DNA from: Mobula hypostoma
Lineage: Eukaryota
NCBI RefSeq assembly: GCF_963921235.1
Contig: NC_086097.1
Span: 111,850,001-111,914,000, forward strand
Reading direction: 5' to 3'
DNA: 64,000 bases
Positions 49,171 to 59,583 of this stretch are shown one piece after another (position 1 is the first letter of the stretch; each line of letters begins with the position of its first letter). The notes beneath the pieces were generated by a model, which saw only the letters and a list, made by a program, of their open reading frames with translations, ran no database searches and was not told the origin of the DNA. A program made the position numbers and the translations under genes.

Positions 49171-50300
49171 ATAGTCGATTGATCTGCTACTAGCTTGTCA
49201 ATGTATTAATTAGCAAGAGTTTCATCTGACATAGCTGTCAATCTTTTTCTTTCAAAACTGTCATTCTCACCTGAGTCGCTACAGGCTGCTAGAGTCCATG
49301 TCAGGTCCACATTGTAATTCCTCCGAGTTCGTATCGAGTCTCTGTTCCTGGAGTCCTGTCATTCTTCTGCGTTTGAATGGTGGCGGTGTATAAGAAGATT
49401 GTCCGATGTGAGCTGTAATTCCATGGGTGGAGTTTAAGAAGTAGGTGTTTTCTCAGGGTGAAGCACTAGCAGCTGTGTCACTTAAAGCATTAGGACCGCC
49501 CACTCAAAGTCGTGGTGGTACTTTTTCATTTACTTTGAAACTTCATACAATGCATATCAATTGAACTACAGTGTTCTTTCACTCGTTCAGTTAATGTAAA
49601 GATTTGCTCTTGAAACTTTTCACCCTATCATGCTGTTTTTGTAGTTTACCACATATTTTGTATTTCTTTTGATTTGTAAGACTTTACTCGCCTCATTAAC
49701 TCTTAAAATCCCTTACGAATTTGATCAAACTGACTATGTGGTATTACCTCTAACTAAGTAGCAGCTATTCCCTTGAACTTAATAAACTGGGCATTGTTGG
49801 TTTTATGGCGGATATGTGGTCCATAATGACAGACCAGGAAGTTTGTTATCTCAACAACTGTTTTATTGTGATGAACTGCAAAGACCTGGCACCATGACCC
49901 AGAGTGTGAACCCAACCAGTCTTACACAGACGGGGGAGGTGACCACCACACACCCCGGTTACAGTTAGGGTGACCCACAAATAACCCAAGATAAAATGTA
50001 ACAATAAATGAACTGGAACTTCCGCCCCTCATAATCCCACAAAAGCATTTTAACACAAGAACAACAAACAGTACTGGTTATTAGAAATAAAGGGGTGGGC
50101 TGTTGACCACACACCGCCAGGGTGTCACACTGCCTCTACCCGATGGGTCAGTCGTTCCCGCCAACCTCAGAGTCTATAACAAAGTCCAAAAGTCCCGATG
50201 GGCGTCGACACTGCCACCTGTTTGCGTGAGGCAAGAGGCAGGACACCCAGAGTATCATTTCCTTACTTCAGCCTCGCTGAGTTAGTGATGGCCAAGGGCT

Positions 50301-50870
50301 TGTTGTAGCGTGGATGAAATCACTGGAGAGACAGGGATACTGGTAGATACAAAGCAGCTTCTTTGTTCGACACAACAAGGTACAGCAGGTATCATATGGA
50401 TGGAGACGCTTTCGGTAGAAAGGTCTGCTAAGCCCAATGTGGGCTCGATATTTATATGCTAAACACAAAAGGCAATCACTACTTACAAAGTTATAGACAA
50501 TGCATGGACAATGCTTCCTTTTGAAGCTACATACAAACATCATACCTTCTGACTTCATTCTTTCCTCCTGACGCCAACATGTCTGGGTTGGTACTCACAG
50601 CCTTTAGGAATGCAAGTTAAATCCACAATACATTTATTTGGTATTTTCCATGCTAACATAGAGGACAATTAATATTTATAAAGTATAGATAATACTGTCT
50701 TCAAAACTACAACATCTGGTCAAACTACAGCGTCAACAGCATCTAGTATTCACAGCTTTTAGGAAATGCATTGTTGTGAACTCAATCCACAGAACTTTGT
50801 CAAACAGAAGACTGGTGACCAGAGTCATTTAAGTATAAATTAATCATCTACCCAAAAACGCACTCTAACA
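50301..50870 (-). repeat. 3' LTR of the inner provirus
   Basis: TG...CA termini; about 30 differences from 57274-57844 by eye; PPT GGAGGAGGGAC at 50871-50881. Confidence 0.95.
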
Positions 50871-51504
50871 GTCCCTCCTCCTGGCCCTCCTGGACAAAAA
50901 TTAAATTTGTACCAGGAAAGGCCAGCCTAGGAGGATCTGCTCAAATCGGACACCAAAAATGGCCTGTCTCGAAATTTCCCCCCTCCCCCCAATTTTATGT
51001 ACCTCGATATCTATCCTAGCATTCCCTAATCGCTACCTACCAAATGTTAAGCGGAGAGGCTGTTCCAAGTCCTTAGAAAATGCAGCTCCTTTCGTGTGCC
51101 TGTCCGCTCTTTCCCTGCAGGCTGACTGCAGCTTAATCGCATTCCTTTGTCTTCATCCCTTTATCCTCTGGTCGCTAAAATCTTATCGCTGTACAGGATG
51201 AGTGGCCTCTACATAAATGTCTGCAAGGACCTTCCCCCAGTGGCACCCCCTTCCAAACTGTCCGGTCAATCACTGGCCCAACTGCTGAAAGGGCCCACCT
51301 CCTTAGACTGGGGTGACTGCTTCCAGATGCCGTGTGCAGTCTGAAATGCCATCGAAGTGGTGGAACTTGCTGTCTCGGCTTTAACTCAAACATCCCTCCC
51401 CATCTATTTCCCAATAAATCTCTATACTGTGCTATAAAACTAATCATCTGCCTTCAGCAACCAGCCTTCTTTACAGAGTACCATCATCATCACACCTTAG
51501 CAGG

Positions 51505-54500
51505 CTATTCATGGTTTTCCAACACGTTCTCTGTGTCTTCTGCCACGCTCTCAGCGTTTTCTGCCTTTGCGTTTTCTCCGGGTATGTTTTCATCAGCTGT
51601 GGTCAGGTCTGGCATGGCCAGCTGATGTTCCTCTCTTAGGTTCTCTGTAATTATATGGTTACTGGGTACACTTGGTTCCCCGCTCTGTCTGTGGGAGCAA
51701 CAAGAGAGTGAGTCGTATGTTTTAATCTGGTTCCAGTGTTTCCACTGGCTGCCTCGCCGAGTCTGTACGCAGACACACATATCATTGGTTAAGAGTACCG
51801 TTTGTGGTCCTATCCACCCGGGGGTAAACGCCGGCCTTTCTGGCAGCACCCTCACCATAACCTGCTCGCCGGGCTGTGGAAGGACTATCCCCTTTCCCTC
51901 TGACTCTCTCTGATCAGCGATTCACTGCTGTTGTTTCGCTCGGTCCTTCAACACTTTAAATTGGTTACAAAGGTCTTTCACATATTGGGTCATTCTATCC
52001 CTGTAAGCCCCAGGCTCCCCACAACCCATAATTACCCCATAGGGGAGTCGCATTGCTCGCCCCATCAATAATTCGTAGGGGTTGAGACCCAAACTGTGAT
52101 TCGGGCTTGCGCACAATCTCATCAGGATTCCTGGTAATACATCAACCCATGTCTTTCCAGTCTCACCTATAGCTTTGGCTAACGCATTCTTGATTGTTCG
52201 GTTCATCCTTTCTCCCATCCCTGAACTCTGGGGGTGTAGGGTACATGGAACCGTTGTTGAATCCCTAGCAGTCGACACATTTCCTTCATCACTTTCCCCG
52301 TGAAATGTGCTCCCTGATCTGAATCCACCTGAACTGGGGTTCCCCACCTTGGGAGGATTTCCTGAACTAGGATCCATGCAGCGGTGCGGGAGGTGCAGTC
52401 CCTTGTTGGGAAAGACTCCACCCACCGGGTGAAGTGATCCATAATTCCTAAACGGTAACTTTCCCCCCTGCTTTCTGGCAGGGGCCCTGTGAAGTCTATC
52501 TGGATGTTTTCCCAGGGTCCCCTCGGCCGAGGCTGATTTGCCAGCTGTAGCTTTCTGCCCTTACCAGAGTTATGCTGGGCACAAATGATACAACGGCGGC
52601 AGAATTTCTCAACATCCCCGCCCATCTCTGGCCATCACCAGTCCTGCCGGAGGGCTGTGATCATGCTCTGCCTTCCCTGATGCATCACCCCATGGTATAA
52701 CTATAGTAGTATCTGTCTAATGCAGGGTGAGGCCACCATGACTCTTTCCTCCCCGTGTGTCCAGCACCCGTCTGGTTCCTCCTTTGCTTCTTTTCTCTTC
52801 CATTGTTCCTTCTTTTTCTGCCTCTACCTCTTCATATAATTTTACTAAGCTGGCTTCTGTCGTTTCCTCCTGCACACTTGCAATTTCAATTGCCTCTTGT
52901 TCCTCTGCTGCCTTCTTCGCAGCAACATCTGCCCACTCATTTCCCTTCTGTTTCATGCTCTGACCCTTCTCACCTTAATCACTACCACCTCTTTTGGCAG
53001 GCTCACTGCTTCCAGTAGCTGTCGTATTTGGTGCCCATGCTGAATATTAGCACCTGTTGAAGTTATGAATCCTCGTCGTGCCCAAGCCATTAGGTGATCA
53101 TGCACCACCCCGAATGCATACCGGCTGTCGGTATATATATTTACCCATCTGCCCTCACTGCAGCGTAGAGCTTCTATCAGAGCGGCCAGTTCTGCTACCT
53201 GAGTTGAGCAACCCCCTGGCAGTTCACCTGTTTCCTTTGCCACGGCCCACCCAGTTCGTGGTTTCCCATCTATGTACCTCCTAGACCCATCTATAACGAT
53301 TTCATCTGCTATTCCTTCCAGAGGTGTTTCTTTCACACTGATATCTTCTTCCTTGACAATTTCTATTTGGCACTCACGTGTTTCTCCGTCTGTTAGGATG
53401 GTGCTCGTGGGATCCTCCCCCGTGTCTCTAACTATAGTTACTGATTTGTCCTTTAGAATGAGAACTGCCTCCCAAGCTGCTCTTCGGCTATCGGTGACTG
53501 CCCTCAGCCTTTCCGTGTTCAGGAGCTCTACAATGGTATGGGGTGTGTGTAGGATCAGTTGCCCCATCATCACAACTGGTTCGCTTACTCGCACAGCCCA
53601 CGCGGCGCAGTCCAAAGCTGCAACACAGTGGGGGAGTCCTGCTGCAGCCGGGTCCTGTTTCGTACAGTAATAGTCCCATGGTCCTGCACCACTACCGTGT
53701 TGTAGTACCCTCCCTCGTTACTACAGTATAGGTGAAAGGGGTGAGCTGTATCTGGTAACCCTAACACGGGTGCGGGAACCAGCGCTTTCTTGATTTCTGT
53801 AAAGGCCTTTTCCTCTTCTGACCCCCACTTTACTTCTTCCAGAGGGGGCTTTCCTCCTTTAATCAAGGCCACTAGTGCTGAGAATCCCGGTATAAAATTT
53901 CGGCAGTAGTTACTCAAACCCATCACCTTCCTCACTCCCCTTACGTTGACTGGGCAGGGCATGGAGCTGATTGCCCAGCGTCTGTCATCTGACATGTCCT
54001 TCCTCCCTTGGGAAATGGTGTAGCCCAGGTACTGTATGGTTTGTTTGCCCAGCTGAGCCTTGTGTGGACTGATTTTAAACCCTTCATCCTGTAGTACCTC
54101 TAAAACACTGGCCATCACTCCTAAATGGCCTGCTTCATCTTCCGAAACAACGAGTAGATTATCTACATATTGTAAAATGGTCGTCCGGTAGGGCATTAAA
54201 TTGAGCTTTTCCAAAGTCTGCGCCATGACCTTATGAAAAATAGCAGGGCTATTGTGGAATCCCTGGGGGAGTCTGGTCCACGTATACCGCCGCCCACCCA
54301 GGGTGAAGGCTAATTGGTCTTGGGATTCAGGTGCTAAGGGGAGCCCCTAAAACCCATTAGTGATATACAGGACTGAAAAAAATTTATGTCCTGGAGACAG
54401 GCCATTCAGGATTGTTGCAGGGCTCGCCACGATGGGATGCAATCTGGGTGTGGTCTTATTAAGGGCGGTATAGTCTATTGTTAACTGATATGATCCATCG

Positions 54501-55890
54501 GGTTTCTTTACTGGCCATATAGGTGAGTTAGTCGTGGCCGCAGTCTCTCTGAGTATCCCTTGGTGTTTTAGTTCCTTCACTCTATCCTGGACAGCTGCCA
54601 GCACGTCAGGTTTTATCGGATACTGCTTATGGGGTTTATGCAGGTCCCCAGCTATTTTAACTGGGTTTATCTTTACCTGCCCACAATCTTGCTTGTGCCT
54701 AGCCCATACAGCTGGGAACTGCTGACAAGGTAACCCATAGACACCATCCTGGCTCCGGTCTCTAATGATCAGGGCAGCTGCGCCTATGCTAGCCATGCTG
54801 TGTATTCTGTTGGTTGTGCACGTTCGCTGCCCTTGACATGTCCGTATTACTTCTCCTTTTCCTGAATCTATAATGAGGGCACGATCCTTGGAATAGACAT
54901 TGTAATATAACAGCTGGTATGCTGGCATTTATAGCAAAAGGATTCGAGTACAGGAGCAGGGAGGTACTACTGCAGTTGTACAAGGCCTTGGTGAGACCAC
55001 ACCTGGAGTATTGTGTGCAGTTTTGGTCCCCTAATCTGAGGAAAGACATCTTTGCCATAGAGGGAGTACAAAGAAGGTTCACCAGATTGATTCCTGGGAT
55101 GGCAGGTCTTTCATATGAAGAAAGACTGGATGAACTGGGCTTGTACTCGTTGGAATTTAGAAGATTGAGGGGGGATCTGATTGAAACGTATAAGATCCTA
55201 AAGGGATTGGACAGGCTAGATGCGGGAAGATTGTTCCCGATGTTGGGGAGGTCCAGAACGAGGGGTCACAGTTTGAGGATAGAGGGGAAGCCTTTTAGGA
55301 CCGAGGTTAGGAAAAACTTCTTCACACAGAGAGTGGTGAATCTGTGGAATTCTCTGCCACAGCAAACTGTTGAGGCCAGTTCATTAGCTATGTTTAAAAG
55401 GAAGTTAGATATGGCCCTTGTGGCTACAGGGGTCAGGGGGTATGGAGGGAAGGCTGGGTTCTGAGTTGGATGATCAGCCATGATCATAATAAATGGCGGT
55501 GCAGGCTCGAAGGGTCGAATGGCCTACTCCTGCACCTATTTTCTATGTTTCTATGTTATATTGCAATGTCTGTTCCAAGGATCGTGCCCTCATTATTTGG
55601 ACACACCCAGAAATACACTGGAAGCTGCACTCCCCCGATTTCTAGTATTTGCGACTCGCTTGTTTCTGCTTTTACCATTTTTCCTCCTACTCCCATAATA
55701 TAAATAGCCTGTCCGGCTGTTGATAAGGGTAGGTCAGTTATTTATACCGATGCCCCTGTGTCCACTAACATATTGCGTTGCCGGCCCCCTAACAATGCTG
55801 TTGTGTACATCCGCAGGTCACCAGGGCTGGCAGTGGAGCCCGCTGCCACATCTTTTCCTGCCCGAAGACGCACCGTTACTAACTCTGATC
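51505..55890 (-). pseudogene. pro-pol pseudogene of the inner provirus
   Basis: PR LVDTGAS (about 55750-55770) and ILGTD; RT NSPIWPVKK, WTRLPQGFHNSP, YVDN; tether PVLGLPD..PFHLY; RH IDGS, QVAELAAL, NIYTDSRYAFG; IN C..C, IDF, DSDQG, ERMNRTIK, WIGP. Several stops and frameshifts. Confidence 0.93.
54915..55553 (+). mobile_element. Young CR1 3' fragment at the protease/RT junction
   Basis: ORF 54919-55464; same subfamily and tail as 13947-15012. Confidence 0.95.
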
Positions 55891-56780
55891 AGATCGACAG
55901 TCAGACTGGTGGCTGATGGGGTGAGTGACTGGGTGTCTGCCGTGACCTTCGCCTGGGTTTTCCCCCTCCCTTTTGGACACTGTCTCCAGCCATGTCCCGA
56001 TAGGCCTCAGCTGTAGCATATCAACTCCTTCACTGTCTTATACCTGGTCCAGCAGTCCTTTGCTGGGTGCCCTGGCTGCCAGCAAGCAGAACAAACTCTC
56101 CAGGACATCACAGCAGCTGCATCCACTATACTCACCCTACGATTTCTCTTGCCTTTTCTTTGGTCTATCTCACTGGCCCACGAAACTATTGCAGAGCAGT
56201 CGGACCCCACCGTTATGCCTAAATCTAAAACTTCCTGGTGGGCTGAGCTCAGGCCTTCCTTCAGCATTTTTAGGAAGACTGGGTCGTCCCTCCCTGGATT
56301 ATCCAACCCTGTATACTCTTCGTATGCTTGGTATTGACGTTCTGCATAATCCATGGCTGTCTCATCAGCCCTGTGAGTCACTGCCATTATCGTTCCCCAG
56401 CTACTCTCGCCTTCCCCCAATCGCTGCCACACTTCCCTTTTAAAAGAGCGATATCTTTTTTCATTACTGTCGCTCTCGGTAGTTGCCCATGTACCATCCC
56501 GCACCCCCTGGGCCATCCTGTCCCATATATTTCTCGGGCACTTCGCTTTCACTAACACGTGTATATCTTTAGGGTGCATCTGGTGGATTTCAACCATTTC
56601 ATCGTGCTTGCGCCAGAATTCTGAATTCTCACAGGCGACTTTAAGTGAGGGCAACTCAGACAAGATGCTCTGTTTCTCCCCGGGGGTGAAGGGCTTATGA
56701 ATAGCCGTAATCAAGGTCAAGGGCTGGCTCAGATCATCAGGGTTCTCAACCTGACGTTGCCTGACCTCAATAAGTGCCAT
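55890..56780 (-). pseudogene. gag of the inner provirus
   Basis: 257-aa ORF with capsid-like HKPFTPGE..LP and ETAMDYAER; two CCHC knuckles, CSACWQPGHPAKDC and CYS*GLSGHGWRQC (Cys lost to a stop). Confidence 0.85.
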
Positions 56781-57253
56781 TCTGGTAGATCTACCTGGGT
56801 AAAACCTCTTCCTGAGTTATCCCCACACTACGCAAAATATAAAAGACCAGTTAAACAACACATAGTTAAAACCACGGAGTATGTATTCCACAATCTGCCA
56901 CTTTTGAGTACCCGAACTCATGATGCCTGCTGTATTCCCTTGCGTCACACTTGCAAACGCATACACTAACCTGCAGCTCCCCGAACAAGTATATATGCCC
57001 CTACGCTGGCGTCTCGAATCGTACCGTCGGTTACCACCTTCGCAACTGGTGGTCCAAGTTAACACGTACAGTTTCCTCACTTACATAAACACACATGCAC
57101 ACGCACACACTCCTTTTATATCTACCAGTGTTCGTGATACCTAGTGTTCCCGTGTACCACCGACCGAACTGATCCAAGTCTGAGTGTTACTTTAGAAAAA
57201 TACTCACCAATTTAGACTGCTAGGAACGCTGGCCACACGACGGGTCACGAAGT

Positions 57254-57271
57254 ATCCCACTCCTGACACCA
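57254..57271 (-). promoter_or_regulatory. Primer binding site, tRNA-Leu(CAG)
   Basis: TGGTGTCAGGAGTGGGAT, 2 nt from the 5' LTR; complementary to the 3' 18 nt of vertebrate tRNA-Leu(CAG) as recalled. Confidence 0.88.
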
Positions 57272-57273
57272 AA

Positions 57274-57844
57274 TGTTGTGGAGTGGATGAAATCACCGGA
57301 GAGACAGAGTTACTGGTAGATACAAAGCAGCTTCTTTATTCGACACAACAAGGTACAGCAGGCATCATATGGATGGCGACGCTTTCGGTAGAAAGGTCTG
57401 CTAGCCCAATGTGGGCTCGATATTTATATGCTAAACACAAAAGGCAATCGCTGCTGACAAAGTTATAGACAATGCATGGACAATGCTTCCTATTGAAGCT
57501 ACATACAAAACATCACACCTTCTGACTTCATCCTTTCCTCCTGACGCCAACATGTCTGGGTTGGTACTCACAGCCTTTAGGAATGCAAGTCAAATCCACA
57601 ATACATTTATTTGGCATTTTACGTGCTAACATAGAGGACAATTAAAATTTATAAAGTATAGATAATACTGTCTTCAAAACTACAGCATCTGGTCAAACTA
57701 CAGCGTCAGCAGCATCTGGTATTCACAGATTTTAGGAAATGCATTGTTGTGAACTCAATCCACAGTACTTTGTCAAACAGAAGACTGGTGACTAGAGTCA
57801 TTTAAGTGTAAAATGAATCATCTACCCAAAAACTCACTGTAACA
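57274..57844 (-). repeat. 5' LTR of the inner provirus
   Basis: Direct repeat of 50301-50870 with minus-strand TATAAATA and AATAAA. Confidence 0.95.
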
Positions 57845-59583
57845 GGCTGACATGGTGCCAGTCGGTCCCAGTACAGCACAACTGCCTTCCGCCGCTCAGG
57901 CAACAGCACCCGATATACCACATCGGAGATGCGGTATCACCTCTCCCAGCCCCTTCCAGTGGCTTCCAAGCCTGGGAGATAGTCCCCTCTTCCGGGAGGG
58001 GCAGTAGACCCATGCTGGAGCTCCCACCATGAACTGCTGCTTTGGCACCCCAGACTGGCGGCCTAGCCCTTCCTGGAACCTGGAAGCGTCGCAGCAGCGC
58101 ACGAACAGCTCCACGTCCTGCCTGTACCCAGGCCAGTAGAAGCGTTCACGCAGCCTGCCCCAGCGTCTTTGCAAATCCGAAATGGCCGGCCCCCACCAGC
58201 CCGTCCACCGACAGCAGCACCGTGGCGCGGAGCCCCGGGGGGACCAGCTGCAAGAGATGTCGGTCACCATCGGACAACTGCCACCACCTGAACAGCAATC
58301 CGTCGGGGACCTCCAGCGTTCCCCACTGCGAGTACAGGGCTTTGGTCTCTGGGTCCAGGGCAGAGGCCTATGCCCACTCCGGCCGTCGTCCCACACTCAG
58401 CCATTCCCTCACCCGGGCCAACATCGGATCGCTCACCTGTTCGCTGTGCACTGCTGGTCCGTGGTGGGGAGGTGGTCGCCGGCGTCACCGTCACTTGCTC
58501 CTGGTTCAGCGGTGTTGCGTTGGGCCGCTGCCGGGTGTACTGCCCTGCCCCGGGCCGCTGTGAAACCGGTGTGGTTACTGCTCCCACTGGGACTTGTTCC
58601 CGGAGCTGCCCTGCCGGAGAGCCACGGCTTCAGCACCGAGGTAGAGTGTTGCCCCGGACACATCCACACGGGCCTCTAGTGGGACAGCAGGTCCAGGCCG
58701 ATGATTAAGGACTCTCGGATGTTGGCGAGTCACACCTCGTGTCCACTGCGATGCACAACCCCCTCTTCCCTCGCATCGCCGCACAGTCACCGGTGAACGT
58801 AGCCAACCGGACCGGTGCCGTTGTCCACCCGGGCGGGGATGGCTGGTCCGTGCTGGGGAGGACACCGGGACAGATGGTAGTGATGGTTGACCCCGTGTCC
58901 ACCAACATACGGCACCTGATGCCCTCCTGCACGCAGGCATCAACGTGTAAGCCTTGTTCTTCACCCAAACGGCCCGCCCGGAGGGGTTCTGCTGCTCCTG
59001 GGCTGTGGCGTGGTGCCGGGGTGGGGTCGTCCCGGACTAAATGACCTGCCGCACCGCACTGGTAGCAGAGATTGTTTCATGGCCCGCAGCGCTGGTCGGA
59101 CTTGCCTCACCGGCTCCTCCTCGTCACTTTCCTCCTCAGTCTCGGTGAGGCAAGCCCGGGCTCGCTAGAGGGAGGCGACACTTTGGTCTTCCTCTTGCTC
59201 CGGCGGCGTCTGCCGTGGTACCCATCCTCCCGTGGCTACGGCGTCTTGGGTTCCCTGGTGCGGGTCGCGACGGAGACGAGTGATGCGCTCCGCTCTGTCC
59301 CCGGGTTGGGGAGCCTGGGTACACTCGCTCCGTCGGGGCTCCCTGGGAAGGCACAATGCTCGGTTCCCAGGTCCTCCCTCCGGGTCTCGTCTGCTTGAGC
59401 CCTGCCCATGGGTGCGGGGGGAGACATACTGCTCGGTCCCTCGTCTTATTACCCGGGTTTAAGGCTCTCTGTCCGACGTCGTAGCTGTTCAATCTTGCAT
59501 CCCACTCCTGACACCAACAACACGCTGGAGGTGAGCATTTGGTCCATAATGGCAGATGAGGAGACTCGTTGAACTCGACAACC

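Follow-up and report, generated by a model that had tools for sequence, protein, structure and literature searches.

A 64,000-nucleotide stretch of the Mobula hypostoma genome (contig NC_086097.1 of assembly GCF_963921235.1, positions 111,850,001 to 111,914,000; hereafter the window) carries on its minus strand a provirus that spans positions 50301-57844 from long terminal repeat (LTR) to LTR. The question raised by this locus is where does an element belong that has a retrovirus-type pol and no envelope gene (env)? A first-pass annotation proposed a lineage basal or sister to retroviruses, perhaps related to lokiretroviruses, Odin retrotransposons or class III elements, that is amplifying without env in a cartilaginous fish. 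The analysis presented here leads elsewhere. The provirus is probably a dead member of an env-less endogenous retrovirus (ERV) family that lies just outside crown class I (gamma- plus epsilonretroviruses), that spread through the germ line, and that consists mostly of derivatives without reverse transcriptase (RT) copied in trans.

Much of the structural description made at first pass stands. The LTRs are about 5% diverged (29 mismatches over 569 aligned bases, Kimura two-parameter distance (K2P) 0.053), and the primer-binding site (PBS) pairs with host tRNA-Leu(CAG) genes, two of the three scanned loci being called tRNA-Leu. Gag encodes two CCHC knuckles, the second broken by a stop in the window copy and intact in 52 of 82 mapped copies, and about 630 bp without an env-sized open reading frame separate the integrase (IN) stop at 51505 from the polypurine tract. 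Pfam gives the domain order RT, tether (PF17919), RNase H (PF00075) and IN (PF00665, PF17921). The catalytic Asp is absent from the first RNase H-like domain in the window and in two close relatives and present in a Gypsy control, and this domain is therefore a true tether. The window copy is dead, with stops or frameshifts in gag, RT, tether, RNase H and IN, and a piece of a long interspersed nuclear element (LINE) in protease.

The tether and second RNase H had been read as a pointer to lokiretroviruses or Odin elements. Both groups do share these domains, and Odin lacks env as well (PMC9040795); however, according to PMC7947760, dual RNase H marks all retroviruses, and it is therefore no pointer to either group. 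The RT trees decide the matter more directly. Among their reference rows, snakehead retrovirus (SnRV; 10,688 nt, PMC12193657) was recognized by RT letters that match a published alignment (L096), the foamy row L107 matches human spumaretrovirus Pol at 98% identity, and the loki motif known from the literature is present in three loki-like rows (L161, L166 and P0341). Other rows we take, from their lengths and motifs, to be walleye dermal sarcoma virus (WDSV), WEHV, Xen1, SSSV, beta and delta. In all RT trees the element falls within canonical retroviruses and outside both crown class I and class II, and the canonical retroviruses that include it exclude the loki-like RTs at 100/98 and also exclude Gypsy. 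Joining the element to the loki-like RTs is rejected by the approximately unbiased (AU) test (p=0.00025). The published supplement gives mostly RCPFGYxNSP...YVDD for lokiretroviruses and RLPFGYVNSP...FVDD for Odin; the element reads LPQG, unlike either, and this motif comparison is what sets Odin apart. Its RNase H is not of the loki/foamy type (group I), and lokiretroviruses carry a paramyxovirus-F-like env where the family has no env-sized frame. The element thus nests in the retroviruses and is not their sister, and a lokiretrovirus or Odin identity was rejected as highly improbable. On these sequence grounds, namely RT placement and a tether followed by a second RNase H, the element is classed as a canonical retrovirus that lacks env. 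As a separate observation, a metagenome contig (L162) combines an RCPFG-bearing, Gypsy-like RT with another motif that resembles a second RNase H; it groups with the Gypsy rows on a long branch and may be another dual-RNase H retrotransposon.

Where within the canonical retroviruses does the element fall? Crown class I excludes it at 100/99-100 in every tree, and joining it to the WDSV group is rejected (AU p=4e-8), so that the earlier suspicion of a poor fit to gamma/epsilon viruses and class II was right as regards tree position. In a tree of RT plus tether (420 columns, mixture model) the query joins a protein of the Mustelus asterias cluster and P0024 at 100/98, a Clupea harengus-cluster protein joins this clade at 97/94, and, at 96/98, the whole forms the sister group of (Anguilla, (Cyprinus, crown class I)). 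The other pol domains agree with this position. The best RNase H matches in the Protein Data Bank (PDB) are murine leukaemia virus (MLV) and the related XMRV (79 bits), with no foamy virus among the 13 matches; gamma/WDSV-type RNases H score 80-92 bits, SnRV 65, foamy types 30-38 and loki-like rows 16-22. The domain is therefore of the gamma/epsilon type (group III), and IN lies on the class I side: the IN tree, in which three long rows leave parts unsure, places the element in groups (96/94 and 99/94) that contain class I/II and the fish relatives but no foamy, SnRV or loki-like row. Also on the class I side of this tree is a hagfish RNase H-IN protein (P0394, Myxine glutinosa cluster) that is 37% identical to a shark relative.

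The nearest named relatives are shark proteins, and the surrounding grade comprises sharks, herring, eel, carps, fathead minnow and gar. The unnamed Pol clusters of M. asterias, Heterodontus francisci, C. harengus and Anguilla anguilla belong to the same clade or grade; they are annotated only as uncharacterized or NYNRIN-like. The nearest two share 53-56% RT-region identity with the element, and the Heterodontus protein has two knuckles and 38% identity across capsid (CA) and nucleocapsid (NC). When viral contigs were scanned with the shark relative, none proved to be related. Xu et al. 2018 (PMC6001957) remark on numerous fish lineages that lack names and on shark ERVs dispersed across the tree, and the clade may therefore already stand there unlabelled. 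No paper naming the family was found in the literature covered, which left most subscription papers, Repbase and Dfam outside, and the clade's RT motif did not appear in the portions covered of four published supplements, which may still bear on a prior description.

The motifs that had been thought to fit no standard class are in fact shared with class I viruses: MLV has WTRLPQGFKNSP / LQYVDD, and the WDSV-type RNase H reads NIYTDSRYAYGVVHD. Nor are two knuckles atypical, since the Xen1-like, epsilon-like row L106 also has two; Jern et al. 2005 (PMC1224870) report a single knuckle for SnRV and two for HERV-H and epsilon viruses. Class I ERVs and the epsilon-like fish viruses of clade Mu (WDSV, WEHV, Xen1; PMC6001957) thus resemble the family in an LPQG/YVDD-type RT, a gamma/epsilon-type RNase H, a class-I-side IN and a gag-protease frame that is shared in most copies and, in some, holds a UAG codon. 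They differ in that the family lies outside the crown, has a 5-bp target-site duplication (TSD) and no env, and gives no Gag_p30 Pfam match.

Is the absence of env a property of this copy or of the family? The distance from the end of the IN probe to the 3' LTR is at most 858 bp in 41 of the 45 siblings in which it could be measured (of 54 loci), and the other four spacers are longer because of different, unrelated insertions at different places and not because of env. In 35 intact spacers no sense-strand stretch free of stops exceeds 96 codons, and tblastx of 71 spacers against 57 env-bearing or reference loci, run without a positive control, gave no matches. No sibling was found to carry env, so the window copy is not to be explained as a deletion derivative of an env-bearing family, and the first-pass claim of an env-less element extends to its siblings. 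The host genome itself gives 78 TLV_coat matches; 20 fetched loci have no blastn similarity to the family, and those placed in trees are epsilon-like. The host genome also contains an env-bearing epsilon-like (SSSV-related) ERV family (L076-L095) whose env and pol frames are long and open and which appears to be the younger of the two families.

One hypothesis is that the lineage never had env and is a primitively env-less branch within the canonical retroviruses. No copy holds env or a remnant of it, including older copies (75-82% identity) that have the same spacer wherever it survives. Env-bearing SnRV, foamy viruses and class I viruses bracket the lineage, however, and loss is the simpler history for this reason; moreover, the Heterodontus Gag starts Met-Gly, which suggests a membrane-targeted ancestor, and env loss is common in high-copy ERVs (PMC10536682). 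A primitive absence therefore seems improbable, and we infer that env was lost secondarily from an infectious ancestor.

How would an env-less family made up largely of damaged copies be propagated? The 3.48-Gb host assembly yields first-look candidates, which are not copy numbers, for the LTR (3,482), gag (1,278), IN (1,152) and RT-RNase H (437); the best 40 of each search were scored, and the loci fetched were ranked by IN (40, one of them by LTR pair), RT (33), gag (30) and distant protein (20). When the host was searched with the Anguilla relative, this family again came out on top, with 16 of 20 fetched loci; four loci gave no blastn match. The family is abundant, with well over a thousand candidate loci, and is dominated by RT-RNase H-deleted derivatives. 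Of 40 loci, 24 have in common a single deletion that begins early in RT and runs to the RNase H end, 13 have other deletions and three are complete. Among 30 gag-ranked loci that were newly fetched, not one has retained RT and RNase H, nine also lack the IN core, and overall six of 40 gag-ranked matches bear RT. Further RT deletions recur in groups (L018, L038 and L178; L181 and L183; L177; L174; and L003, L029, L179, L184, L191, L207 and L208), among them a second shared deletion of about 100 bp within the RT remnant, and the deleted copies therefore form nested sub-lineages of non-autonomous elements.

The pattern of substitution in the deleted class suggests which parts remained in use. Gag variants common to at least three copies are enriched at third positions (49 versus 43 at positions 1 and 2) compared with singletons (88 versus 204; p=6e-5). 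IN shows weak enrichment (p=0.02 and 0.05), and none was seen in the RT remnant (p=0.32), protease (p=0.41) or spacer (p=0.92). Compared with complete copies, deleted ones show greater divergence in the RT remnant (0.83 versus 0.90) but not in gag or IN. Gag is thus under purifying selection in the deleted class. Because gag is selected, the RT remnant shows no such signal and the reading frame across the deletion is mostly lost, it is likely that Gag was needed in cis and Pol supplied in trans, and recombination with complete copies may add to the signal. Trans complementation is a known route of ERV spread (PMC10435555). A selected protease-IN fusion created by the RT deletion was also considered, since the junction looks in frame in most of 22 copies; it was rejected on the frame of the whole remnant and on the gag-ranked copies that lack the IN core.

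The Gag proteins may bear on the manner of assembly. Family Gag resembles orthoretroviral CA plus CCHC (Atlas 0.90), and its single-sequence fold prediction has a pLDDT (predicted local distance difference test) of 38. Upstream of CA a long frame is present in 33 copies, of which 14 have a Met-Cys start at 115-118 codons and none a Met-Gly start; this frame extends at least 90 codons upstream, and a deletion of the matrix domain was rejected accordingly. The Met-Cys start would fit intracellular assembly. Gag and protease share one frame in 52 of 75 copies, and in five of 11 RT-bearing copies an in-frame TAG in one shared context stands 27-30 codons before the protease Asp, where MLV-, SnRV-, WDSV- and Xen1-type references have 27, 32, 40 and 41 codons, respectively. 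We hypothesize that the LTR transcript would be translated into a Gag without Gly2 and thus without a myristoylation signal, so that particles would likely assemble inside the cell and spread within germ-line cells. Pol would likely be made by readthrough of a UAG that precedes the protease Asp by about 30 codons. tRNA-Leu would prime reverse transcription, the second RNase H would be the active one, and integration would occur with a 5-bp stagger. Derivatives deleted for RT-RNase H, some also without the IN core, would likely have retained Gag for the packaging of their own RNA and relied for Pol on the complete copies, which are a minority.

Several results weigh against this reading, some against the placement and others against the mode of spread. 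The RT-only mixture tree joins the clade to foamy viruses at 95/89 (58/60 under LG+G4), although the RT-only AU test does not reject an orthoretroviral placement (p=0.12), and the best PDB match of the IN core is prototype foamy virus (PFV) integrase. An alternative hypothesis is thus that the element is part of a wide assemblage related to foamy viruses (clade Tu, broadly understood, and perhaps the pol-only shark CmiFLERV lineage) that kept or gained an orthoretroviral Gag, RNase H and IN. The RT-only group has 13 rows, including a teleost protein like the foamy-like ERVs (FLERVs), and a weak Spuma_A9PTase match (E 0.012) points the same way; shark FLERVs are known from pol alone (PMC5512871). 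However, the foamy grouping is rejected on RT plus tether (AU p=0.009, for a foamy group defined from the RT-only tree, with which the columns overlap), RNase H and IN are class-I-like, two knuckles and a same-frame gag-protease are unlike foamy viruses, whose Gag lacks zinc knuckles and whose pol is expressed separately, and teleost FLERVs read YIDD(I/V)F (PMC5210030). We therefore regard foamy affinity as unlikely, in agreement with the first-pass view that the element is not a foamy virus.

The TSD provides a further point against the placement and is the most unusual trait of the family. Among 33 copies with both ends it is exactly 5 bp in 18, 4 bp in one and 3 bp in one, with no exact match in 13. 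Gamma- and epsilonretroviruses make 4-bp duplications, and in its 5-bp TSD the family resembles ERV-L. Could the element then belong to class III or clade Huo, as a relative of SnRV or ERV-L? SnRV is the top exogenous virus by pairwise RT score (39%, 247 bits versus 223 for the next), and it has in common with the family a UAG readthrough codon. No tree, however, joins the element to SnRV or to the frog/coelacanth/turtle group with ERV-L-like RNase H, its RNase H scores are lower against SnRV than against class I, and SnRV has one knuckle and an env. SnRV also has an Arg PBS. The class III suggestion of the first-pass annotation accordingly keeps the 5-bp TSD on its side and has no support from the trees, which contain no ERV-L rows; we consider it improbable. 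These trees also contain no ERV4, CmiFLERV, XtrFLERV, Odin or lentivirus rows, the RT plus tether tree contains no class II, and a pattern scan for ERV-L gave one match, which is not an RT.

As to the mode of spread, the loci sampled are the top matches of each search, and env-bearing copies that are rare and diverged could have escaped this sampling. Only 15 of 42 deleted copies preserve the frame across the deletion, which makes it improbable that they expressed IN; recombination with complete copies could account for the weak IN signal and for part of that in gag. The gag stop is missing in five of 11 RT-bearing copies and in 60 of 70 others, so that a single Gag-Pol frame is possible in part of the family.

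If the family is an env-less ERV outside crown class I, as we favor, it joins known kinds of element as a new member from a deep, under-described branch. Like intracisternal A-particles (IAP) and MuERV-L (PMC10536682) it is env-less and high-copy and likely spread within cells; it differs in lineage and in that most of its copies are RT-less derivatives. Like Bhikhari Bik-2 and ENS-1 (bioRxiv 2024.03.25.586437) it has gag-keeping non-autonomous copies dependent on a partner's pol; Bhikhari, however, is loki-derived and has no pol at all, whereas the family keeps protease and IN remnants. It is no missing link joining retrotransposons to retroviruses. It is a clean example of stepwise decay from an env-less ERV to gag-keeping non-autonomous elements, and it offers many copies of one of the thinly sampled deep fish branches near the class I/foamy/SnRV-like split, with readable structural traits in the Leu PBS, two knuckles, 5-bp TSD and UAG. 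If the 5-bp TSD belongs to the class I stem, this would suggest that the 4-bp stagger of gamma/epsilon viruses is derived. A bolder proposal, to which we give little credence, is an unnamed genus-level shark/ray/teleost lineage at the class I stem with class-I-type RNase H and IN and a 5-bp stagger that never had env; were this true, env would have been acquired later or repeatedly within the canonical retroviruses.

Table 1 Features of the provirus and its insertion in the window
Feature	Position	Strand	Remarks
Left target-site duplication	50297..50300	+	GGCT
3' LTR	50301..50870	-	570 bp
Polypurine tract	50872..50882	-	
Spacer at env position	50883..51504	-	non-coding; env remnant: none detected
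Integrase	51505..52900	-	HHCC, core, GPY/F-like C-terminus; spread over several frames
Second RNase H	52953..53320	-	gamma/epsilon type
Tether	53400..53829	-	degenerate first RNase H without catalytic Asp; frameshift; bounds approximate
Protease end and reverse transcriptase	53830..54869	-	one internal stop; catalytic motif damaged
Inverted copy of target 55554-55596	54870..54912	+	43 bp, at 5' end of LINE piece
Inserted LINE 3' fragment	54913..55553	+	short-repeat tail; no Pfam match
Protease, N-terminal part	55554..55790	-	DTGA at 55762
gag	55850..57096	-	frameshifts and one stop break frame; 5' end approximate
gag CA-NC part	56010-56816	-	single frame
gag knuckle 1	56093 (start)	-	
gag knuckle 2	56018 (start)	-	broken here
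Primer-binding site, tRNA-Leu(CAG)	57254..57271	-	TGGTGTCAGGAGTGGGAT at 57271-57254; two bases after 5' LTR
5' LTR	57274..57844	-	571 bp, TG...CA
Right target-site duplication	57845..57848	+	GGCT

The provirus sits in a GC-rich repeat (49900-50300 and 57845-58396; 613 first-look candidates) that contains an Integrase_H2C2 fragment and is probably a Gypsy element. Eight of nine other copies of this repeat have an empty site, which confirms the 4-bp GGCT duplication reported at first pass for the window copy; as described above, it is not the family pattern. The window copy is about 53 million years old at an assumed yearly rate of 0.5e-9 substitutions per site (PMC10699275) and about 120 million at 2.2e-10 (PMC4422223). 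K2P between the LTRs of 25 datable siblings ranges from 0.028 to 0.106, and all dated copies are old; of the first-pass statement that the family is amplifying without env, only the absence of env holds. Two loci on one contig (L013 and L032, both C96) share their flanks and have no TSD, which suggests a segmental duplication or a recombinant provirus.

The segment 54870-55553, set aside at first pass as an insertion, is indeed foreign to the provirus, and its composition can be refined to a LINE 3' piece, which we take from its motifs to be CR1-like, plus a short inverted copy of the target. Because across 54870-55596 this inverted copy replaces a direct TSD and is accompanied by a small loss of target sequence, the arrangement suggests that the LINE RT switched to target DNA at the LINE 5' end.

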